In this document: positions 21,425 to 32,895 of the stretch, piece after piece
How the letters are laid out: each line of letters begins with the position of its first letter
Numbering within the stretch: position 1 is the stretch's first letter
Source of the DNA: Candidatus Omnitrophota bacterium
GTDB taxonomy: Bacteria; Ratteibacteria; UBA8468; B48-G9; JAFGKM01
Direction of reading: 5' to 3'
DNA: 64,000 nt
NCBI GenBank assembly: GCA_023819375.1
Contig: JAMWDI010000006.1
Location: 35,730 to 99,729 of the forward strand
Translations under genes and position numbers: made by a program
Notes under the pieces: generated by a model
Databases searched by the model: none
Told to the model about the DNA's origin: nothing
What the model saw: the letters and a program-made list of their open reading frames with translations, nothing else

Positions 21425-23314
21425 TTAATTAATTTTATAAATTTTTCTCCATAATTCAAAAACAAGAATAAGAAATAATCTTGCCGAATGATCAACTTTT
21501 CCTTCTATGTGCTCATCAATTATATTTTTTACAATTTTAAAATCAAATAAATCCAGTTTGTTAAATTCATTATCTAAAAGAATTTCTTTTAAATAATTTC
21601 TTAATTCCTCCCTAAACCATTTTCCAAGAGGAACACCAAATCCCATTTTTTTTCTTTTCAAAATTTCCTCTGGTAAGAAATTTTTTAGTTTTTCTTTCAA
21701 TATATATTTACTAATATTTCTTCTTAATTTCAAATCTGCAGGAAAAGTTGAAATAAGTTCTATAAATTCTGTATCCAAAAATGGACTTCTTCCTTCAATA
21801 GAATTTGACATGCAGGCAATATCCATTTTAACAAGTAGAACTTCTGGAAGATAAAGATTAAAATCGCAAAAAATCATTTTTTCAAGCAAATCCCAGTTGT
21901 TTGTTTTTTCCCATAATTTCTCTGTTATTTCAAATGAATTATAATTTTTAAGTATATTTTTGAAATTCTTACTATACAATTTTTGTTTCCATTCGGGCGA
22001 AAAAGATGTTAAACGCCTTGAATAGGCAAAACAAAAACCATTATCATCTGCTTCTTGTAGCCATTTTAAGATACGAGAAATCAAGGAATAGGGTTTCCAA
22101 TCATAAATTTTCTTGATTAATATTTTAGTATTTTTGTTAAGTGTCCCAGATATTTTGAAAATTTTATATAATTTTTCAAGTAATTTTGTTTGATAATATC
22201 TTGGATATCCTGCAAAATTTTCATCTCCCCCATCTCCATTAAGTGCAACTTTAACATATTTGCTTGTTTGTTGTGCTATATAGTAAGTTGGAATCATTGA
22301 AGAATCACCAAATGGTTCATTATAATACCAAACAAGTTTTGGCAATATTTCTATAATATTGGGTTTAACAACAAATTCATAATGTTCTGTTTTAAATTTT
22401 TCTGCCACAATTCTCGCATATTTTAATTCATTAAAGTTCTTGACATCAAAACCAACAGAAAATGTTTTTATGGGCTGACTTGATAAATTACTTATAATTC
22501 CAACAATAGTTGAAGAGTCAATTCCTCCTGATAAAAAGGCACCAATTGGGACATCTGCTATCATTCTTATTTTTGTTGCTTCTTTTAATTTTTCCCATAA
22601 AAGTTCTTTATATTCATTTTCATTTCTTAAATATAGTTTCTTATTAAAATCAATTTCCCAATACTTTTTTATTTTTATTTCTCCGTTTCTGTATATTAAA
22701 TAATGGGCAGGCTGTAATTTTTTAATGTTTTCAAATATAGTTTTTGGTGATGGTATTGCTTGATATGTAAAAAAATTATCAATGGCCTTAAAGTCAATCT
22801 TTTTTTCAATTTCTGGAACTTGCAGTAAACCTTTAATTTCAGAAGCAAAATAAAAATTTCCATTTTTGATTGTATAAACAAGAGGTTTTTTTCCAAGACG
22901 GTCTCTTGCAAGGAATAAAATTTTGTTTCTTTTGTCCCATATCGCAAAAGCAAACATCCCTCTTAGATAATTTAAACAATTCTCCTTTTCTTCTTCATAA
23001 AGATGAACAATGACTTCATTATCTGATTTTGTTTGGAAAATATGTCCATTTTTTTCGAGATTTTTTCTTAAATCAATAAAATTGTATATTTCACCATTAC
23101 AAACTAAAATCAAACTCTTATCTTCATTAAATAATGGTTGTTTTCCTGTTTCTAAGTCAATTATACTTAATCTCTTATGTCCTAATCCAACATTTTCTTC
23201 AAAAAAATAACCTTCTTCATCTGGCCCCCTATAATTCATAATTTCAATCATTTTTTTTAATTCTTCAATTTTTACCTTTTCTGCTTTTTTAATTATTCCA
23301 ACTATTGCACACAT
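21425..23314 (-). CDS. asnB: asparagine synthase (glutamine-hydrolysing) family amidotransferase
   Basis: 629 aa. Ntn Cys2 (MCAIVGI), HRLSIIDL, and the PP-loop SGGIDSS. Confidence 0.85.
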   Translation of the reverse strand: MCAIVGIIKKAEKVKIEELKKMIEIMNYRGPDEEGYFFEENVGLGHKRLSIIDLETGKQPLFNEDKSLILVCNGEIYNFIDLRKNLEKNGHIFQTKSDNEVIVHLYEEEKENCLNYLRGMFAFAIWDKRNKILFLARDRLGKKPLVYTIKNGNFYFASEIKGLLQVPEIEKKIDFKAIDNFFTYQAIPSPKTIFENIKKLQPAHYLIYRNGEIKIKKYWEIDFNKKLYLRNENEYKELLWEKLKEATKIRMIADVPIGAFLSGGIDSSTIVGIISNLSSQPIKTFSVGFDVKNFNELKYARIVAEKFKTEHYEFVVKPNIIEILPKLVWYYNEPFGDSSMIPTYYIAQQTSKYVKVALNGDGGDENFAGYPRYYQTKLLEKLYKIFKISGTLNKNTKILIKKIYDWKPYSLISRILKWLQEADDNGFCFAYSRRLTSFSPEWKQKLYSKNFKNILKNYNSFEITEKLWEKTNNWDLLEKMIFCDFNLYLPEVLLVKMDIACMSNSIEGRSPFLDTEFIELISTFPADLKLRRNISKYILKEKLKNFLPEEILKRKKMGFGVPLGKWFREELRNYLKEILLDNEFNKLDLFDFKIVKNIIDEHIEGKVDHSARLFLILVFELWRKIYKIN

Positions 23315-24456
23315 TATTTAAGTACCTCTTTATAAATATTTAAAATACACCTAATACAGTTTTCCCATGTAAAAATTTTACTTCTTTTTACACCTTTTTC
23401 TCTTAAATCTTCTTTTAAATTATCATTTTTTAAAATATTGAATATTTTGTCAACTGCGTCATCTCTCTCAAATGGATTTACATAAATACCAGCATCCTGA
23501 ACTATTTCAGGTAAAGAAGAAATATTTGAAACAATAACAGGGGCTCCACAACTCATTGCTTCAACTACTGGAAGTCCAAAGCCTTCATAGAGTGAGAGAA
23601 AAATAAAAATTTCAGCACCAGAATAAAAATAAGGCATATCTTCTTTTGGAATTTCAGAAAAACAATAAACATGTTCTGAAATGTTCTTTTCCATTGCAAG
23701 TTTCAAAATATCTTTTTTTAAATAGTTAGTTCCAACAATTATTACAAGTTTTTCCTCAATTTTCTTTTCTTTTAAAATTTTGTAAATATCAAATAAAAAT
23801 GGGATATTTTTCCTTTTTATAGAAGTTGCAACTGTTAAGATATATCTTTCATAACTAAAATATTTTTTCAGTTTTTCAAAAGCATATTTCTTTTCAATTG
23901 GTCTGAAAACTTTGTGATTTACTCCCAAATAAACAACTTTTATTCTTTCTTCTGGAAGTTTATAAATTTCCATTATATCTTTTTTGGTTGAAAAAGAAGG
24001 GACTATGATTATATCACTTCTTATTGCTGAACTCTTTATTTCAGAATACCATTTTTCTTTATAAACTTCTGGCATAATTTCAAAAGATAAATCATAAATT
24101 GTATAAATTGTTTTAATTTTTTTAAACAAAGGAAGATATGTTGCAGAAATTCCATGATAGATTGAAATTTTTTCTCTTTTTAATAATGTTTCAATAAAGG
24201 GGATTTTAAATTTTTCTTCTACAATTTTTATGAATTTTTTAGGAAATGGTAAAATTTTTAAAGAAAAATTATTAGATTCTGGAATCTGAATATTTTTTAT
24301 TCTTTTCCAATAATTTTTTAAAAAAAAACCAAAAATTAAATATTCATTTTCTTTATCAATTGAACTTAAAGTATCCAAAAGTTCCGGAAGTAGATAATAA
24401 ATCCCACCTTTTTCTGTTGAACTCAAACCGATACCAGCATCTATACATATTTTCAT
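23314..24456 (-). CDS. GT4 glycosyltransferase (paralog of the 25436 gene)
   Basis: 380 aa. EGFGLPVVEAMSCGAPVIVSNISSLPEI. The N- and C-terminal blocks are shared with the 25436-26587 gene. Confidence 0.8.
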   Translation of the reverse strand: MKICIDAGIGLSSTEKGGIYYLLPELLDTLSSIDKENEYLIFGFFLKNYWKRIKNIQIPESNNFSLKILPFPKKFIKIVEEKFKIPFIETLLKREKISIYHGISATYLPLFKKIKTIYTIYDLSFEIMPEVYKEKWYSEIKSSAIRSDIIIVPSFSTKKDIMEIYKLPEERIKVVYLGVNHKVFRPIEKKYAFEKLKKYFSYERYILTVATSIKRKNIPFLFDIYKILKEKKIEEKLVIIVGTNYLKKDILKLAMEKNISEHVYCFSEIPKEDMPYFYSGAEIFIFLSLYEGFGLPVVEAMSCGAPVIVSNISSLPEIVQDAGIYVNPFERDDAVDKIFNILKNDNLKEDLREKGVKRSKIFTWENCIRCILNIYKEVLK

Positions 24457-25439
24457 TTTTTAATTTTTAATTCAAGTTCTTTTAAATCATTTTCAACCAT
24501 TATTCTCACAAGTTCTTCAAATTTCACCTTTGGTTGCCATCCAAGTTTGGTTTTTATTTTTGTAATATTGCCCCTTAATTCATAAACTTCTGCAGGTCTA
24601 AAAAGAGTTTTATCAATTTCAACATATTTTTCCCAATTTAGGTTAACTATTTTAAATGCAAGTTCTACAAATTCTTTAACTGAATGAGTTTCTCCAGTTG
24701 CAATTACATAATCTTCTGGTTTTTCCTGCTGTAACATTAAATACATTGCTTCAACATATTCAGGAGCATAGCCCCAGTCTCTTTTTGCTTCAAGATTTCC
24801 AAGTTTTATTTTATCTAAAAGCCCCAATTTGATCATAGCAACACCTCTTGAAATTTTCCTTGTAACAAATTCAAAACCTCTTCTTGGAGATTCATGATTA
24901 AAACAAATACCACTACAAGCAAACATATTATATGCTTCCCTATAGTTTTTTGTAAAATAATATCCAACAACTTTTGAAATACCATAAGGAGATCTTGGAT
25001 TAAAAGGTGTATTTTCATTTTGTGGCGTTTCAATTGCCATTCCAAACATTTCACTTGATGCAGCAAAATAAAATTTACAATCTGGTTTTCTATTTTTTAA
25101 AGCAGAAAGAATATAAATTGTTCCATTTATATTTGTATTTAAAGTTGAAAATTCATCTTCAAAGGAATAACTTACAAAACTTTGTGCTGCAAGATGATAA
25201 CATTCATCAGGTTTAACTTTTTCAACTATGTTATATATACTTGCATAACTTTCAAGAGAACCACAATGAAGATGAATTTTATCAACTATATGTCTTATTC
25301 TCCATAATCTATGCTCAGGATCTTCAAAAGCCACTCTCCTTACTATTCCATGGACTTCATATCCCTTTTCAAGCAATAATTCAGCAAGATATGAACCATC
25401 CTGACCCGTAATTCCAGTTATTAATGCCCTTTTTTTCAT
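24453..25439 (-). CDS. gmd: GDP-mannose 4,6-dehydratase
   Basis: 328 aa. ALITGITGQDGSYLAELLLEKGYEVHGIVRR is the canonical Gmd N-terminus, and the YGISK catalytic YxxxK is present. Confidence 0.9.
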   Translation of the reverse strand: MKKRALITGITGQDGSYLAELLLEKGYEVHGIVRRVAFEDPEHRLWRIRHIVDKIHLHCGSLESYASIYNIVEKVKPDECYHLAAQSFVSYSFEDEFSTLNTNINGTIYILSALKNRKPDCKFYFAASSEMFGMAIETPQNENTPFNPRSPYGISKVVGYYFTKNYREAYNMFACSGICFNHESPRRGFEFVTRKISRGVAMIKLGLLDKIKLGNLEAKRDWGYAPEYVEAMYLMLQQEKPEDYVIATGETHSVKEFVELAFKIVNLNWEKYVEIDKTLFRPAEVYELRGNITKIKTKLGWQPKVKFEELVRIMVENDLKELELKIKK

Positions 25440-26589: not shown

Positions 26590-27288
26590 TTAGAAATATT
26601 TTTCACAAATATCTATATCTTCTCTAAAATTTATATTTATATAAAATCCTTCAAAAATTACTGGACTTATAAATTCTCCCCCATCAATCATCTTTTGAAT
26701 TACATCTGTTATTTCAATTTCATTTCTTAGAGGAGATGGTGGTGTTATTTTAATATAATCAAAAACAACTCTATCAAAGAAATAAAAACCCATTCCACAT
26801 AAATTGTTGACAATATGTTTTGGTTTTTCTACAACCTTAATAACTTTTTTATTTTTTATTTCAACTGAGTAACTCTTTTTTATATCTTCAGGATTATCTG
26901 TTTTCCAAACTCCTATACCTTGTTTCATGTTTTTGGGAAAAATAAAATTTCCCTTGCATAGACAATCTCCTAAGACAACTATGAATTTTTTATTTACATA
27001 ATCTTCAACAAGGGAAACCGCATGACCAATTCCTTTTAATTCTTTTTGTTCAACAAACTCGCTTTTGATATTTAGGGTTTTAACATATTCAATTATTTTT
27101 TCTTTTTTGTAACCTACAACAAAAATAAATTTATCTGTTATATTTTTCCAATAATCAATAATATAATAAAGAATAGGTTTATTTTTTATCAAGATCATGC
27201 TTTTGGGTAAATCTGGTTCGTTTAATCGAAGTCCTTTCCCTGCACATAAAACTACACATTTCAAATCTTCTTTAAAAAATTTTTCCAT
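26590..27288 (-). CDS. sugar-phosphate nucleotidyltransferase
   Basis: VVLCAGKGLRL is the nucleotidyltransferase G-loop. I prefer the ATG at 27288 (MEKFF), which sits 1 nt after the stop of the upstream gene. The ORF is open up to 27315. Confidence 0.75.
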   Translation of the reverse strand: MEKFFKEDLKCVVLCAGKGLRLNEPDLPKSMILIKNKPILYYIIDYWKNITDKFIFVVGYKKEKIIEYVKTLNIKSEFVEQKELKGIGHAVSLVEDYVNKKFIVVLGDCLCKGNFIFPKNMKQGIGVWKTDNPEDIKKSYSVEIKNKKVIKVVEKPKHIVNNLCGMGFYFFDRVVFDYIKITPPSPLRNEIEITDVIQKMIDGGEFISPVIFEGFYININFREDIDICEKYF

Positions 27289-27289
27289 T

Positions 27290-28555
27290 TTAGTTTTTCC
27301 CTTTATAAAATTCAATAATTTTACTTATATTTTTTTCATTATCCCATATTTCTTTTGCTTTTTTAAATGCATTTTCTCCAAATTTTTTTACAAGTTCATT
27401 ATTTTTTAACAATATCTTTATTTTTTCAGCGAACTCATAAATATTTTGAGGTTCACAAAGAAAGCCTTCTTTTCCATCTTCTATAAATTCTTTAATTCCT
27501 CCTATTCTACTTGCTACAATCGCTTTTTTATTAAACATACTTTCAACAAGAACGACAGGAGACATATTTTCCCACTGTTCAGGAATTACAACTACTTTTG
27601 ATTCTTTAAAATATTTTTTAATTTCTTGATGATGTAATTTCCCTTTAATTACAACATTCTCGCTTAAATTTTTATCTTTTATCATTTTAAAAATATTTTC
27701 AACATATTTTTTTTCAACATTTTCAATTTCTCCAATTACATATAAAAGAACATCTGGAATTTCTTTTTTTATATTACTTAATGCTTCAATCAAAATATGA
27801 AGTCCTTTTCTGTATTGAATCCATCCTATATAAAGTAATATATTTCCTTTTGGTAAATCATATGGTTCATCTTTAAACTCCTCAAATATTTGAGGAATAA
27901 CTTTTGATTTTCTTATTGAAAGGCCATATTCTCTACCAATTTTTAAGGAAGAGTTTGATAAGAAAATGTATCCATCTATTTTTTTTAGAAAGAAGTTGAA
28001 AAATTTTTTTCTTAAAGGTAAAAATATTCTAAATCTAAATTGGATTTTAAAACACTTGAAACAATAAATACTGTTATATTTTTTACAGATATTATTGTTT
28101 AAATCAATCAATGTTTCATTCGGGCAGAAAAACCAATAATCATAAATAGATAGAAAAGATTTTATTTTGTAAAGTTTAACCCATATTAAGGGTGCAAATG
28201 AAATTTTTTTAAAATTGTGAAAATGAACAATTTCTGGTTTTATTTTTTTAAGAATTTTCCTTGATTTTAAAAAGACAATTATATCAAAAGGAAAAATTAT
28301 TTTGAAAAAATCAAAATTGCTTAAAATCCTGTTTTTTAAACTTTTAGGCTTTTTAAAGTCAATATAATTGTAAATTGTTTTTGTAACAAAAACATTTTTC
28401 TCTAAAATCTTATTTTTTGTTGGTGGTGTTATAAGATAATAATTTTTTATTTTATTTTTCTCTAATTCTTTAACCAACCTCATAGTTGCAATTTCTGCAC
28501 CACCATAAAAGTCATGATAATCAGGATGAAAGTCAACTATGTGTAAAATTTTCAT
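27290..28555 (-). CDS. GT4 glycosyltransferase
   Basis: 421 aa. ILHIVDFHPDYHDFYGGAE at the N-terminus and a C-terminal PEQWENMSPVVLVESMFNKKAIVAS E-x7-E-like region. Confidence 0.7.
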   Translation of the reverse strand: MKILHIVDFHPDYHDFYGGAEIATMRLVKELEKNKIKNYYLITPPTKNKILEKNVFVTKTIYNYIDFKKPKSLKNRILSNFDFFKIIFPFDIIVFLKSRKILKKIKPEIVHFHNFKKISFAPLIWVKLYKIKSFLSIYDYWFFCPNETLIDLNNNICKKYNSIYCFKCFKIQFRFRIFLPLRKKFFNFFLKKIDGYIFLSNSSLKIGREYGLSIRKSKVIPQIFEEFKDEPYDLPKGNILLYIGWIQYRKGLHILIEALSNIKKEIPDVLLYVIGEIENVEKKYVENIFKMIKDKNLSENVVIKGKLHHQEIKKYFKESKVVVIPEQWENMSPVVLVESMFNKKAIVASRIGGIKEFIEDGKEGFLCEPQNIYEFAEKIKILLKNNELVKKFGENAFKKAKEIWDNEKNISKIIEFYKGKN

Positions 28556-29691
28556 TTTATATATTCTTTTATCTTTTTAAAAATTTTTTTTGCTATTGAA
28601 ATTTTATAAGGCCTCATATCTGATGTCATTTTGTATATTTTTTCTTGTAAATCTTTTGAATATGTATCTGCTATTGGCTTTGCTTTTTCTCCATAAAATA
28701 AAGAGTCATATTGCATTTGTTTATCAAAAGGAACATAATAAGAAAAATGAGCATTTATTCCTATTTGTTTTGCCCATTCTAAACTTTTTAAGTCCTTTTC
28801 ATATGATGAACCGGGTAAACCTATAATGAAAAATCCATTAACACTATCAAAATATTTTTTAGCAATCAAAACCGCTTTTTCAATATCTTTACTTGTTTCT
28901 CCTTTTTTAATAAATTTTAAAATTTCGTCATCAATACTTTCTATTCCAAAACTTATATGAGTACATCCTGCTTCTTTTAAAGCAATTGCCACTTCTTCAT
29001 CAAATCTATCTGCTCTTAAACCATTGGCACAACTCCATTTTAAATTTAAGTTTTTAACAAGTTCACAAAATTTTATAACTCTTTTTTTGTCTACATTAAA
29101 GCAGTCGTCAAGAATTGAAAAAGATTTTATATTCCACTTTTCTTTTGCTAATTTAAGTTCCTCATAACAATTTTCTGGACTTCTAGTCAGATATTTTTTA
29201 TTTCTGCTTACACAATAGATACACTGATAAGGACATCCCTGAGAGGTCATTATAGCATAATTCCATACACCTTTTTGCCAGTTTTTGAGAAATATCGGAA
29301 AAGAATCAAAGAGTTCATAATTTGGAAAAGGTAGTTGGTCTGAAAAGGGTATATTTATTTCTATTTTTTCATCAAAATTAATATAGGGATAACAACATTG
29401 AACTTCAATTATTCCAGATACAGACTTTATTTTTGCTTCAGGATATTTTTTCTTATATTTTTCAGCAATTTTCCTTGCTTCACTATATGTTCTTGATTGA
29501 ATAGAAATACCAACTGTATCTGCTTTTATTTTTAAGTATCTATTTTTGGGTTTGGGTAAAGTATTTAAATCAATTATTCTACAATTTAAAATAGTTCCAA
29601 TATAAGCAATTCCAATATTGGGTATATCAAAATTTACTCCTGCATAAGGATTAATCAAAATTATGTTTTTATATTTTATCGGATATTCCAT
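28552..29691 (-). CDS. radical SAM enzyme with an N-terminal B12-binding-domain-like (Rossmann-like) module
   Basis: The CxxxCxxC motif is SQGCPYQCIYC. It is preceded by a roughly 150-aa domain (NIILINPY...VGISIQS), as in class B/B12-binding-domain radical SAM proteins. I prefer the ATG at 29691; the track start at 29736 is a GTG. Confidence 0.7.
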   Translation of the reverse strand: MEYPIKYKNIILINPYAGVNFDIPNIGIAYIGTILNCRIIDLNTLPKPKNRYLKIKADTVGISIQSRTYSEARKIAEKYKKKYPEAKIKSVSGIIEVQCCYPYINFDEKIEINIPFSDQLPFPNYELFDSFPIFLKNWQKGVWNYAIMTSQGCPYQCIYCVSRNKKYLTRSPENCYEELKLAKEKWNIKSFSILDDCFNVDKKRVIKFCELVKNLNLKWSCANGLRADRFDEEVAIALKEAGCTHISFGIESIDDEILKFIKKGETSKDIEKAVLIAKKYFDSVNGFFIIGLPGSSYEKDLKSLEWAKQIGINAHFSYYVPFDKQMQYDSLFYGEKAKPIADTYSKDLQEKIYKMTSDMRPYKISIAKKIFKKIKEYIK

Positions 29692-30889
29692 ATTTTTCTT
29701 CTCTATCAATTGTATTATATGCTCTACACCCTGCACATAGAATTGGAACTTTTTCTCTTTTTTTTACAATCATCTTTCTAAATTCTATATATCTCTTTGA
29801 ATACCATATTTCTTTAAAAGGTTTTTCAAAAATGTTGCCTAAAGCATATTTTTTTAAAAAATCTCTTTTATTAGACATTAAAACTGCACAACAAGGCATT
29901 ACATATCCGCCCATCATAATATAGGGTTCCTGCCAAGCAATGCAATTATGCATTGGTTGTAAATTTTTAGGATGTGTTGGATGAACAAATGAAATATTCA
30001 TTCCAAGTTTTTTTGCTTTTTTTATTGTCAATTTTATTAATTCATCAGGTATTTTAGGCAAAAAAAGATGTTCAATTTCTGGAAAATAAAGTAATCCTGT
30101 AAATTCAATTCTACTTCCTGGACCCAATAAATTTTTATTTAATGAATATACAAGTTCAACAAAATCTGGCATTTCGTGAACATTTAATTTATTAACTATA
30201 TATCTAAAATAAACTTCTGGAATTGGAGATTTATATTCTTTTTTTAATTTTAAAAATGTTTTAATGTTGTTTAAGGTTTTTTCAAAATTACAACCAATTT
30301 TTATTTTTTCATAAGTTTCTTTTGTTGCTGCATCAATTGAAATATAGATTGTGTCTACTCCAAGTTCTATAAGTTTTTTAGAAATATTTTCATCAATTAA
30401 ATCAAAACTATCAACTAATGCAACAAAAATATCTCTCTTTTTTAAATATTCAATCATTTTTAAATAATCTTTATTCAAAAAAGCATCACCTTCACCTGTT
30501 AAATTAACCCATTTTAATTTTGGAAAATTTGAAATGATTTTTTTAAATTCTTCAAAACTTAAATCTTTGTTTGGTTCTTTCCAATAGGTATGTTCACAGA
30601 TTAAACATTTCTTATTACATTTTGTTGTAATTTCAATTTCTAAGACTTGTGGATAGCCTATTATTTCAGGGATTAAATTGGGATATAATTTTAAAATTGG
30701 AAGAAAGATTGAACCTATCCAATTGCCAGTCCCTTCTCCACCAGCAAAAACAAAAAATTTTGTCCATAGAAATTTATATAATCCTCTAATACCCCTTTTT
30801 CTTAAAATATAAAAGATAATTTTTTTGTAATTGAACAAATTGAAGATTGGAGTTATTATAAGTTCTAAATTTTTAAAAATTTTTTTCAT
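29669..30889 (-). CDS. radical SAM / SPASM-domain enzyme
   Basis: 406 aa. CxxxCxxC is TTKCNKKCLIC. The C-terminal Cys-rich auxiliary-cluster region is HNCIAWQ...MPCCAV...LCAGCRAY. About 75 aa of hydrophobic N-terminal extension precedes the core. Confidence 0.8.
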   Translation of the reverse strand: MKKIFKNLELIITPIFNLFNYKKIIFYILRKRGIRGLYKFLWTKFFVFAGGEGTGNWIGSIFLPILKLYPNLIPEIIGYPQVLEIEITTKCNKKCLICEHTYWKEPNKDLSFEEFKKIISNFPKLKWVNLTGEGDAFLNKDYLKMIEYLKKRDIFVALVDSFDLIDENISKKLIELGVDTIYISIDAATKETYEKIKIGCNFEKTLNNIKTFLKLKKEYKSPIPEVYFRYIVNKLNVHEMPDFVELVYSLNKNLLGPGSRIEFTGLLYFPEIEHLFLPKIPDELIKLTIKKAKKLGMNISFVHPTHPKNLQPMHNCIAWQEPYIMMGGYVMPCCAVLMSNKRDFLKKYALGNIFEKPFKEIWYSKRYIEFRKMIVKKREKVPILCAGCRAYNTIDREEKYGISDKI

Positions 30890-32363
30890 TTTTAATCATT
30901 TCCTTAATCCAATTTGTTTTTAAGACTAACCCAAAATAGACAATGCAGCAAAAGATTACTTCAATAAATAAAAGATAAATATTCTTGTTAAAAAATTTAA
31001 AACTATTTATTAACCATACAATTAAAAAAAGCAAACTACTTCCCATCAATGGAACAAAAATAGAGTTTTTAAAAGTAAAAGAAAAGTTTATTTTTAGAAT
31101 TTTATGAAAAATCCACAGTAAATATGAAGTGCTGAGGCTAATGGAAATTAATGTGGCAATTATCACACCAACAAAACCTATAATTTTTATTAAAACGTAT
31201 GTAAGGACTATATTTAAAATACTTTGAAATACACTGGCATACATTTGATATTCTGGCTTTTCTATACCTACTAAAATTGCAGTTAAATTTGAAGAAAGTA
31301 AAGTTATTAAAAAAATTAAACTGAATAATCTTAAAACAATAATTGAATTTTCATATCCAGGCCCAACCCATACATTTATTATTAAAGGAGCAGCTGCAGT
31401 TATAAAAAACATAATTGGAAAGGCAAAAGTTGAAACATATTTCAATCCATATGTATGTAATTTTATTAATTTCCCCTTTTCATTTAATGCTTTCAATTCT
31501 GCTGATGCAGGTACAATTGCCGAATTTAAAACTCTTATCATACTTGCAAGTTTTTCAGGTATAGTATATCCGATCTGATAAATTCCAACAAGGCCTACAT
31601 TTAAAAAGTGCGATATGAAAAATTTATCCGTTTGATATGTTATAACTTCTTCAATTGTAGTTAGCCATCTTTTAATCCCAAATTTACTCAATTTTTTTAA
31701 CATGTTTTTTTCAAAGTTTAAAAAATTCATTTCAACTTCAGGAAATATTTTAAAAACAAAATAGATATATATTAAACTTCCAATTGAGTATACAAGAAAA
31801 TTATTAAGCATCAATCCTTTTATTCCCCAGTTATTTTTTATAAAGAAGATAACACCTAAAGCGTGTAGAGATGTGAGAAATATTGTAATTTTCCCTGTGA
31901 TATCCATTCTTTGAAATCCCCTTATGCAACTTTGAAAAAGATTAAAGATGTTAGAAAATCCTACATAAATAATTGTCCATTTAAAAAGGAATTGAGTATC
32001 ATCTTTAAATTCCTGTGGTATTTTTAGAATTTTTATTAAATAGGAAGGAGAAAAAAAAGCAAGTGGTAACAGAATTAAAAATATAATGAAATAAAAAAAT
32101 AAACCAGATTTTATTACATAATTTATGTTGTCTATCTCATTTTTTGTCTTATATTCTGCAATATATCTTTCAAAGGACTGCCCTATACCAAAATCAATAA
32201 GAGAAAAATATCCTGTTATCAATGTAATTAAAGACCATATACCATATCTATTTACTCCAAGATTTTTTAGAACAAAAGGAACAAGGAAAAATCCTAAAAT
32301 AGCAGAATACCCATAACTTATAAGATTGTAGATTGTGTTTCTTATAATTTTTTCTTTTAACAT
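30873..32363 (-). CDS. wzx: MOP-superfamily oligosaccharide flippase (Wzx-like)
   Basis: 496 aa and roughly 12-14 TM segments. The N-terminus IRNTIYNLISYGYSAILGFFLVPFVLKNLGVNRYGIW is typical of polysaccharide-biosynthesis flippases. Confidence 0.75.
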   Translation of the reverse strand: MLKEKIIRNTIYNLISYGYSAILGFFLVPFVLKNLGVNRYGIWSLITLITGYFSLIDFGIGQSFERYIAEYKTKNEIDNINYVIKSGLFFYFIIFLILLPLAFFSPSYLIKILKIPQEFKDDTQFLFKWTIIYVGFSNIFNLFQSCIRGFQRMDITGKITIFLTSLHALGVIFFIKNNWGIKGLMLNNFLVYSIGSLIYIYFVFKIFPEVEMNFLNFEKNMLKKLSKFGIKRWLTTIEEVITYQTDKFFISHFLNVGLVGIYQIGYTIPEKLASMIRVLNSAIVPASAELKALNEKGKLIKLHTYGLKYVSTFAFPIMFFITAAAPLIINVWVGPGYENSIIVLRLFSLIFLITLLSSNLTAILVGIEKPEYQMYASVFQSILNIVLTYVLIKIIGFVGVIIATLISISLSTSYLLWIFHKILKINFSFTFKNSIFVPLMGSSLLFLIVWLINSFKFFNKNIYLLFIEVIFCCIVYFGLVLKTNWIKEMIKNEKNF

Positions 32364-32412: not shown

Positions 32413-32895
32413 TTATTTTGAGGAAATTATTGTAGAATAACTTTGCAAATATTTAAGGTTTTTAGAAAAAAACTCAAGTTTATCTGTTAGTTTTTCAATT
32501 TCTTTTATTTTGTTTTTTATTAATTTTTCATTTTTTACCTTTTCAATATTTTTCTTTATTTCTTTCAGATATTTTCTGATTTCATTTATTCTTTTTAGAA
32601 GTCCTGTTTGTAATTTATTTATTATAATTCCTTCTATATCTTCATTTGCTTTATATAGTGGTCTTGTATGTCCCCTTTTCCAGACTTTTTCAACTGCATT
32701 CCAATCTTCAAGTTTTTTTAGATTTATACTTACATTACCCTTACTAATTCCAAGTTCTTTCGTTATTTGGGAAGGAGAAAGAGGTTTTGAATTTAAATAT
32801 AAAAGAGCATAAATTTGACAGGTTGTTCTATTAAGTCCCAATCCTTCTCCTATGTTTCCAGCCAGTTCTATCAGTTTTTCTTTTATTTTATCCAT
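32413..32895 (-). CDS. winged-HTH transcriptional regulator, GbsR/MarR-like
   Basis: 160 aa. QIYALLYLNSKPLSPSQITKELGISKGNVSINLKKLEDWNAV is the HTH region, followed by a C-terminal K/E-rich helix. Confidence 0.7.
   Translation of the reverse strand: MDKIKEKLIELAGNIGEGLGLNRTTCQIYALLYLNSKPLSPSQITKELGISKGNVSINLKKLEDWNAVEKVWKRGHTRPLYKANEDIEGIIINKLQTGLLKRINEIRKYLKEIKKNIEKVKNEKLIKNKIKEIEKLTDKLEFFSKNLKYLQSYSTIISSK

Follow-up and report, generated by a model that had tools for sequence, protein, structure and literature searches.

Two overlapping radical S-adenosylmethionine (SAM) genes, located in a stretch of 64,000 nucleotides from a Candidatus Omnitrophota bacterium (contig JAMWDI010000006.1; hereafter the window), may form the radical core of a self-contained and horizontally mobile cassette for the tailoring of glycans. 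The first gene encodes a twitch-type radical SAM enzyme (enzyme 1), the second an AprD4-like one (enzyme 2), and the pair is flanked by genes for a Wzx-family flippase and for a family 4 glycosyltransferase (GT4) carrying a four-cysteine insert (Cys4-GT4). Given that Wzx, GT4, and a sugar-1-phosphate nucleotidyltransferase remain syntenic with the pair across bacteria and archaea, we consider it very probable that the two enzymes tailor a glycan and not a peptide, and the closest solved relatives of both all act on sugars or nucleotides. For the cassette as a whole, including the stepwise course outlined below, we see the chances as evenly balanced. An earlier note on this DNA had recognized two overlapping radical SAM genes with CxxxCxxC motifs and had assigned them to a glycan operon, rather than to a locus for a peptide that is ribosomally synthesized and then modified post-translationally (RiPP). 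The first point was confirmed, and neither motif varies in the 120 homologues of the respective enzyme; the second is supported by the conserved synteny.

The proposed course would start with the nucleotidyltransferase, which would activate a hexose-1-phosphate to a nucleoside diphosphate (NDP)-hexose, and on the cytoplasmic side of the membrane the Cys4-GT4 would transfer the activated hexose onto the polyprenyl-diphosphate-linked unit under construction. The AprD4-like enzyme, acting without cobalamin, would then employ a 5'-deoxyadenosyl radical to take a hydrogen from the sugar, with elimination of the neighboring hydroxyl yielding a keto-deoxy sugar. The twitch enzyme would oxidize or epimerize a secondary carbinol of the same or a neighboring residue via one auxiliary [4Fe-4S] cluster, and the invariant cysteines that such a cluster leaves free (C200 and one of C333/C334) would be suited to act as a hydrogen donor. 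Wzx would flip the completed unit last. The order of these steps is our suggestion, and its components differ in strength. A lipid-linked glycan as the substrate of the radical SAM enzymes has about an equal chance of being right or wrong, and the specific reactions, i.e. dehydration and oxidation or epimerization, are put forward tentatively. It is likewise possible, albeit rather doubtful, that the radical chemistry occurs directly on the polyprenyl-diphosphate-linked glycan at the flippase, with the AprD4-like dehydratase docked on or fused to Wzx and the twitch oxidase or epimerase alongside; an ordinary hexose newly attached by the Cys4-GT4 would then become a deoxy-keto or epimerized sugar right ahead of export.

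A recurrent gene set in glycan loci

Both radical SAM families comprise hundreds of members each at 50-65% identity, from sources that include Candidate Phyla Radiation (CPR) bacteria, Margulisbacteria, Elusimicrobiota, Nitrospirota, Omnitrophota, Thermoplasmatota, and Heimdallarchaeota. With each species represented by one genome, a pattern scan recovered 30 loci, all from metagenome-assembled genomes (MAGs), in at least 15 phylum-level groups of bacteria and archaea. When 31 non-redundant loci, the window included, were scored with the window proteins, an AprD4-like partner was located near the twitch enzyme in 13 of them. All 13 also carried an orthologue of the Cys4-GT4, compared to two of the 18 loci without the AprD4-like partner, and a nucleotidyltransferase homologue was present within 10 kb of the twitch gene in 21 of the 31. 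The recurrent set consists of the twitch enzyme, the AprD4-like enzyme, and the Cys4-GT4, mostly accompanied by the nucleotidyltransferase, and was seen in Nitrospirota, Endomicrobiales, Chitinivibrionales, Desulfobacteraceae, and Gemmatimonadota, as well as in Patescibacteria-labelled MAGs, one Gammaproteobacteria MAG, and Methanosarcinales. Starting from the AprD4-like protein, all three loci retrieved had the twitch gene immediately upstream, its end overlapping the AprD4-like start by 4-16 nucleotides, and a GT4 gene directly after, on either strand. The other neighbors are glycan genes (Wzx, Wzy_C, STT3/AglB, GT2/GT4, and NDP-sugar short-chain dehydrogenases/reductases, SDRs), often joined by an extra full-length B12-binding radical SAM gene.

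Both radical SAM genes were confirmed as minus-strand open reading frames (ORFs) of the window, each with its CxxxCxxC motif (Table 1). The 3' end of wzx overlaps the gene of enzyme 1 by 17 nucleotides, the two radical SAM genes overlap by 23 nucleotides, and the stop codon of enzyme 2 shares the sequence ATGA with the start of the GT4 gene. Since all three junctions overlap, wzx, the two radical SAM genes, and the GT4 gene are translationally coupled. Inspection of these junctions in the window left no space for an additional ORF, which agrees with the earlier statement that a precursor gene would find no room here.

In the lineage of the window, the two radical SAM genes occur together in the same two of 41 related genomes, with the carriers in one genus; neither was found in the remaining genomes of the family and order among those compared. 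This joint, patchy distribution fits the pattern of a horizontally acquired module for glycan variation. The genome containing the window comprises 1.73 Mb on 13 contigs.

Fusion to the flippase and the nature of the substrate

A connection between the AprD4-like enzyme and the flippase is provided by two fusion proteins, P0248 and P0255, which combine an AprD4-like domain with Wzx; both measure 868 aa, and they share 45% identity. Their radical SAM half is a complete AprD4-like domain, 40% identical to enzyme 2 over residues 11-356, and keeps the CC motif of enzyme 2 (VLCCYRY), while the C-terminal half of P0248 aligns with the window Wzx at 30% identity (2e-84). The fusions are encoded on three contigs, in the order helix-turn-helix (HTH) regulator, fusion, B12-binding radical SAM, twitch radical SAM, and GT4; on the two contigs that are long enough (L042 and L043), the nucleotidyltransferase and the second GT4 come next. 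The fusion loci represent the gene set of the window in rearranged form. Only two clusters of fusion proteins were found among 5.8 billion sequences, and the fusion, which probably arose once, has been retained across the deep divergence of two lineages. Wzx takes lipid-linked oligosaccharides from the cytoplasmic side. Because the AprD4-like enzyme is fused to this handler of lipid-linked oligosaccharides, we favor a lipid-linked unit over a soluble NDP-sugar as the substrate.

The most serious alternative, which we rate as rather unlikely though well worth considering, is that both enzymes act earlier, on a soluble NDP-hexose, comparable to DesII on its thymidine diphosphate (TDP)-sugar, and that the Cys4-GT4 transfers the resulting rare activated sugar. 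This would agree with the nucleotidyltransferase accompanying the twitch enzyme in 21 of the 31 loci and with NDP-sugar SDRs of the 4,6-dehydratase type as frequent neighbors, and DesII, BlsE, and viperin, which have nucleotide-linked substrates, are among the fold or sequence relatives of enzyme 1. However, a membrane-bound, lipid-linked substrate better accounts for the two lineages in which the AprD4-like enzyme is fused to the flippase, AprD4 itself acts on a glycoside and BtrN on a free cyclitol, and the gene that the AprD4-like one consistently accompanies is the GT4 (13 of 13 loci) rather than the nucleotidyltransferase, which is absent from L001, L016, and L037.

An AprD4-like radical SAM enzyme

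The gene of enzyme 2 starts at the ATG at position 29691, which is preceded by a purine-rich stretch, and homologues start at residues matching MEYPIKYKNIILINP. The start had previously been placed at a GTG at position 29736, and with the corrected codon the overlap to the upstream gene shrinks from 68 nucleotides to the 23 given above. The protein matches Pfam Radical_SAM (3.2e-22; 79.9 bits versus a cut-off of 29.5) and is composed of a Rossmann-like N-domain of ~100 residues with four beta-alpha units, a linker, and a radical SAM core from about residue 140 (AlphaFold predicted local distance difference test, pLDDT, 93.4). Its closest solved relative is AprD4, both by sequence (4.7e-13 with the single protein and 4.9e-19 with the profile) and by fold (template modelling, TM, score 0.71; E 8.4e-16), followed in the fold search by class B methylases (MgmA, TsrM, TokK, and CysS) and MiaB/RimO. 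Enzyme 2 reached 51.1 bits versus the 500 required for the AprD4 family NF033070, and no NCBIfam equivalog was attained, with HpnJ as the best match (1.6e-30; 106 bits versus 578). Judged by sequence and predicted structure, enzyme 2 resembles AprD4 in architecture and fold, without being a member of its family.

Full-length alignments to enzyme 2 were obtained for only ~20 clusters at 50% identity among 1.84 billion representatives, and the next relatives are proteins of 450-500 aa that match only from residue 116 onward. Residue 161 of enzyme 2 aligns to position 199 of the HpnJ profile, and the part preceding the core is ~40 residues shorter than in canonical members. The match to the B12-binding domain (PF02310) remained below the gathering score (19.4 versus 32.1 bits), and weak matches at E <= 0.01 were obtained for 31 of 120 family members, the best at 7.2e-06. 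In sequence and model, the N-domain has the appearance of a compact, degenerate B12-like Rossmann module. An extra Fe-S site built from further cysteines of enzyme 2 was considered and dropped, since C209, C221, and C243 are also present in AprD4.

These data also bear on the earlier view of the N-terminal part as a Rossmann-like module of the class B type, of which the fold and the remote B12 kinship were retained, whereas the match stays below the PF02310 threshold and the nearest relative is AprD4. We deem it improbable that enzyme 2 is a true cobalamin-dependent class B methylase which, in the manner of GenK/Fom3, adds a methyl group to a sugar carbon. The remote homology of the N-domain to B12-binding domains, the appearance of MgmA, TsrM, TokK, and CysS right after AprD4 in the fold search, and the frequency of bona fide B12-radical SAM genes in related loci would all be compatible with such an activity, but the window protein fails the Pfam gathering score, it is truncated ahead of the core in a region that its longer relatives do not match, and its best relative AprD4 binds no cobalamin (PMC12931638). 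Moreover, where a full B12-radical SAM enzyme is present (L036, L042, and L044), it is encoded by an additional, separate gene. The GenK/Fom3-type C-methylation suggested by the earlier note is the less likely chemistry, given the missed PF02310 threshold and the cobalamin-free AprD4, and we retain an AprD4-like, cobalamin-independent reaction as our proposal.

A twitch-type radical SAM enzyme

Enzyme 1 matches Pfam Radical_SAM (PF04055; 8.6e-16, 59 bits versus a cut-off of 29.5) and SPASM (PF13186; 3.9e-13, 49.9 bits versus 21.5), the latter being a model of the portion common to SPASM and twitch domains. A full SPASM domain contains a seven-cysteine motif, CX2CX5CX3C plus one more downstream cysteine, and two clusters. 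Enzyme 1 has nine cysteines in total, all of which are kept in the 120 homologues (C91, C95, C98, C200, C316, C333, C334, C385, and C388), and its C-terminal domain holds only the last five. As no cysteine follows the C-terminal CxxC, the CX5CX3C...C part of the motif is absent and a full two-cluster SPASM identity was ruled out. The SPASM-like label given to the protein earlier is correct insofar as PF13186 is matched above its cut-off, but the cysteine pattern is that of a twitch domain. We assign enzyme 1 by sequence to the twitch type, with one putative auxiliary cluster and a BtrN-like arrangement of cysteines. The twitch domain is a shortened SPASM domain binding one auxiliary cluster, and in BtrN this cluster has four cysteine ligands (PMC9012708).

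BtrN is also the best relative of enzyme 1 among PDB sequences (1.4e-7 with the single sequence and 3.8e-12 with the family profile), followed in the profile search by viperin-like enzymes and DesII. In phmmer and profile alignments, C333 corresponds to the hairpin cysteine of BtrN (residue 187 as numbered in chain 4m7s_A) and C385/C388 to the later CxxC of BtrN, and C316 is located 16-17 residues before the hairpin cysteine, where BtrN places its first ligand. The AlphaFold model (pLDDT 94; predicted TM score 0.91) has generic Foldseek neighbors with TM scores of 0.5-0.6, namely SuiB and SkfB at the top, DesII, BlsE, viperins, and BtrN, and this search with a predicted structure leaves the function unsettled. 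No NCBIfam equivalog was reached by enzyme 1 either, the best being W_rSAM_matur at 136 bits versus a cut-off of 380.

Residues 1-80 of enzyme 1 constitute a conserved N-terminal extension (consensus YKxTIxYLLxKRGxRxxYNFLFxKxFVxxGGEG), modelled by AlphaFold as four packed helices with pLDDT above 78. The extension is strongly basic (12 K/R versus 3 D/E), its maximal Kyte-Doolittle mean over 19 residues is 1.23 and under the transmembrane level, and the hydrophobic moment of the N-terminal helices (0.59) is not above that of ordinary helices. A transmembrane segment was ruled out by hydropathy and charge, and these values, together with the packing of the helices, argue that the extension is not membrane-spanning. 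The hydrophobic extension of ~75 aa described in the earlier note is real and conserved, with a length of 80 aa, but it is basic and does not represent a hydrophobic membrane segment. No domain resembling a RiPP recognition element (RRE) was seen in the model of enzyme 1, and the extension, which lacks beta strands, is not an RRE.

Another possibility, which we judge to be very improbable, is that the target of the enzymes is not the sugar but the lipid carrier or some other lipid of the membrane, as a radical SAM tetraether synthase does with archaeal lipids. GDGT-MAS is indeed among the weak matches (sequence 1e-3; rank 27 in the fold search of enzyme 1), and both the basic extension of enzyme 1 and the fusion of the AprD4-like enzyme to a membrane flippase could be read in this way. 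Yet the GDGT-MAS matches span the generic radical SAM core only, the hydrophobic moment of the N-terminal helix does not exceed that of ordinary surface helices, and the GT4, which is always part of the cassette, and the sugar nucleotidyltransferase, which usually is, would be superfluous for the modification of a lipid alone.

We also searched for a peptide substrate by clustering ORFs of 20-120 aa from 34 loci, with a second pass in which ORFs of at least 150 aa were masked. In the first pass, every larger cluster listed consisted of alternative-frame ORFs within large conserved genes, and after masking no intergenic small-ORF family occurred in more than two of the 34 loci. Similarly, no PqqD/RRE Pfam match was obtained in the scanned window proteins or the listed neighboring genes. 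A conserved small peptide gene in orthologous loci had been named beforehand as an observation that would overturn a glycan role; as no conserved small ORF was found across the 34 loci, a RiPP-type peptide partner is not supported. That the pair are RiPP or protein maturases residing by chance in a glycan operon is the least probable explanation of all, for although SPASM/twitch enzymes are best known from RiPP pathways and SuiB and SkfB lead the Foldseek matches of enzyme 1, it is disfavored by the lack of a conserved small ORF in the 34 loci, the absence of intergenic space in the window, the all-helical extension devoid of RRE-type strands, and the conserved partnership with Wzx, GT4, and the nucleotidyltransferase.

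Points weighing against the proposal

Several observations count against glycan tailoring by the course proposed here. Experimental work exists for no member of either family, and the homologues are all derived from uncultured organisms. BtrN and AprD4 are distant relatives (14-18% identity in fold alignments) and, with the NCBIfam cut-offs also widely missed, the type of reaction is not transferable from these enzymes. AprD4 is paired with AprD3, whereas the cassette lacks a reductase of its own, and the twitch family occurs without an AprD4-like partner in 18 of the 31 loci, so the two enzymes need not share one sugar residue; both facts account for our low confidence in the specific reactions. 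The fusion with Wzx is rare and limited to two diverged clusters, and it might signify co-assembly instead of a common substrate. Finally, the degenerate N-domain of enzyme 2 may still bind cobalamin, considering the weak PF02310 matches in 31 of 120 members and one representative of a 50% identity cluster that scored above the threshold.

Neighboring genes and coordinates

The four-cysteine insert is located in the N-domain of the GT4 and is conserved in all 16 aligned cassette orthologues (C-P-x10-12-C-x7-8-C-x2-C). PDB matches of this GT4 span residues 191-418 only, i.e. the C-terminal domain, which places the insert outside every solved relative; it may represent either an Fe-S site or a zinc ribbon. 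The best PDB relatives of the nucleotidyltransferase are glucose-1-phosphate thymidylyltransferases (1.4e-15). A guanylate-kinase-like P-loop protein of ~250 aa lies between the AprD4-like enzyme and the Cys4-GT4 in L001 (12392-13141; a JGI metagenome contig) and in L016 (13155-13919; a Gammaproteobacteria-labelled MAG), and these loci have no nucleotidyltransferase.

Conservation extends to further genes of the operon. In L006, a Wzx orthologue with 73% identity is found upstream of the radical SAM pair; L008 has an upstream homologue of the window HTH regulator (35% identical), and HTH genes are located directly upstream of the cassette in L036 and L042-L044. Orthologues of the second GT4 (39-68% identical) follow either the nucleotidyltransferase (L006, L008, and L010) or the Cys4-GT4 (L001 and L016), and in L007 a copy with 32% identity resides between the radical SAM pair and the Cys4-GT4.

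The GDP-mannose 4,6-dehydratase (Gmd) of the window is just above the TIGR01472 equivalog cut-off (419 versus 415 bits), and no partner processing 4-keto-6-deoxymannose was seen among the scanned operon genes. Homologues with more than 50% identity to Gmd occur only in L006, L026, and L028 of ~31 loci, on which grounds Gmd was rejected as a general substrate supplier of the radical SAM enzymes and probably serves another sugar of the glycan.

An AsnB-type amidotransferase is encoded at positions 21425-23314 of the window; its nearest family is the XrtA/PEP-CTERM-associated TIGR03108 (628 bits, below the cut-off of 817). Two distant loci (L028:1148-2884 and L032:19515-21161) likewise have such an amidotransferase, with 36-38% identity, no more than 10 kb from the cassette. 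A DUF362 protein with a ferredoxin-like 4Fe-4S tail is encoded inside the cassette in one locus of Methanosarcinales (L028:12250-13362) and one of Chitinivibrionales (L029:11146-12291), where it could be a dedicated electron donor of the radical SAM enzymes; in L029, it adjoins a GmhB-like HAD phosphatase. Full-length B12-binding radical SAM genes are very abundant in related glycan loci (L038:1-17122, L003, L004, L036, and L037), with L038 containing six of them in 17 kb beside methyltransferases and Epimerase_2 proteins. This abundance suggests that uncultured anaerobes methylate their surface glycans extensively by radical chemistry.

Table 1. Coordinates of genes and motifs in the window and of the fusion genes in related loci.
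Feature	Coordinates	Strand	Evidence
HTH regulator, MarR type, operon head	32413..32895	-	Pfam MarR_2 5.2e-10
Wzx/MOP-family flippase	30873..32363	-	Pfam Polysacc_synt 1.3e-17
Radical SAM enzyme 1, 406 aa	29669..30889	-	Pfam Radical_SAM and SPASM; AlphaFold; BtrN as best PDB sequence relative
CNKKCLIC (aa 91-98), cluster motif of radical SAM enzyme 1	30596..30619	-	Invariant in 120 homologues
Putative auxiliary-cluster cysteines of enzyme 1, C316-x16-C333C334...C385-x2-C388	29717..29944	-	Sequence, homologue alignment, BtrN alignment
Radical SAM enzyme 2, 379 aa	28552..29691	-	Homologue N-termini, AlphaFold, AprD4 matches
QCCYP, family-specific motif closing the N-domain of enzyme 2	29386..29400	-	C99 invariant, C100 at least 90% conserved
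CPYQCIYC (aa 153-160), cluster motif of radical SAM enzyme 2	29212..29235	-	Invariant in 120 homologues
GT4 glycosyltransferase with Cys4 insert in N-domain, 421 aa	27290..28555	-	Pfam Glycos_transf_1 1.5e-35
Cys4 motif of GT4, C144-P-x11-C157-x7-C165-x2-C168 (aa 144-168)	28052..28126	-	16/16 aligned cassette orthologues
Sugar-1-phosphate nucleotidyltransferase, 232 aa from ATG 27288	26590..27288	-	Pfam NTP_transferase 1.4e-16
Second GT4, 383 aa	25436..26587	-	Pfam scan
GDP-mannose 4,6-dehydratase (Gmd)	24453..25439	-	TIGR01472 419.1 bits vs cut-off 415
Radical SAM-Wzx fusion gene	L042:2853-5459		
Radical SAM-Wzx fusion gene	L043:2599-5205		
Radical SAM-Wzx fusion gene	L044:5708-8314		

Comparison with known systems

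To our knowledge, sugar-tailoring radical SAM enzymes are known almost solely from antibiotic pathways (BtrN, AprD4, DesII, and GenK), and no description of a radical SAM enzyme acting on a cell-envelope glycan, or of a cassette of this kind, was found in the literature searched, where a Geobacter paper among the matches proved unrelated. The cassette is small (5-7 genes) and moves among anaerobes that are very distant from each other, with CPR bacteria as well as DPANN, Asgard, and methanogenic archaea among them. If the proposal is correct, it would allow strict anaerobes to gain rare deoxy or epimerized surface sugars in an oxygen-independent manner and without the usual enzymes depending on nicotinamide adenine dinucleotide (NAD) or pyridoxamine phosphate (PMP), and it would add a new enzyme class to the diversification of O-antigens and N-glycans. 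The two enzymes, common to both prokaryotic domains, would be the first demonstrated case of radical SAM chemistry on a lipid-linked oligosaccharide, and the radical SAM-Wzx fusion would offer a handle on the coupling of glycan modification to flipping.

The closest counterpart of enzyme 1 is BtrN, the 2-deoxy-scyllo-inosamine dehydrogenase of the butirosin pathway (PDB 4M7T), which likewise has a radical SAM core followed by a twitch domain and oxidizes a carbohydrate-like substrate by two electrons (PMC9012708). The C-x16-C(C)-x50-C-x2-C spacing of enzyme 1 parallels the auxiliary cysteines of BtrN, and the local alignment spans the hairpin cysteine and the CxxC. In contrast to BtrN, which measures ~250 aa and belongs to an antibiotic pathway, enzyme 1 has 406 aa, carries the additional N-terminal module of 80 aa, a CC doublet, and the extra invariant Cys200, and is encoded in a surface-glycan cassette; the similarity between the two is significant over the auxiliary domain only. 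Epimerases of aminoglycoside pathways provide a further parallel, here compared by description only. NeoN and, going by the title of a 2021 report by Besandre et al., reportedly HygY are radical SAM sugar epimerases; enzymes of this kind have auxiliary clusters and invert a carbon of the sugar with a dedicated cysteine as hydrogen donor. In NeoN, the donor is Cys249, as summarized in PMC10991966. Enzyme 1 has invariant cysteines (C200 and one of C333/C334) beyond the four that one cluster would need.

For enzyme 2, the corresponding relative is AprD4, the radical SAM 1,2-diol dehydratase of apramycin biosynthesis (PDB 6FD2), in which a Rossmann-like N-domain with remote B12 kinship also precedes the radical SAM core and which, according to its PDB title, acts on a glycoside (paromamine) and not on an NDP-sugar. 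Enzyme 2 differs from AprD4 by its low identity (18% in the fold alignment), its shorter N-domain, and its own QCCYP motif, and instead of an AprD3-type reductase it has a twitch radical SAM enzyme, the Cys4-GT4, and Wzx as partners. Class B methylases (GenK, Fom3, TsrM, and TokK) have the same order of Rossmann-like N-domain and radical SAM core and are second-tier fold matches, but the N-domain of enzyme 2 is truncated and its B12 match below threshold. HpnJ, which catalyzes the ring contraction to the hopanoid cyclitol ether, matches the radical SAM core of enzyme 2 only (residues 161-328), and no hopanoid genes are present. HpnJ works on a lipid-linked amino sugar placed by a glycosyltransferase, and it offers a conceptual parallel to the modification of a lipid-linked sugar.

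Taken together, twitch-type radical SAM oxidoreductases and epimerases, as well as the AprD4-type dehydratase, are already known from aminoglycoside pathways. New are two unnamed families with tight conservation, the constancy with which a Cys4-GT4, a nucleotidyltransferase, and Wzx accompany them in the envelope or N-glycan loci of anaerobic bacteria and archaea, and the fusion of a radical SAM enzyme to a flippase.

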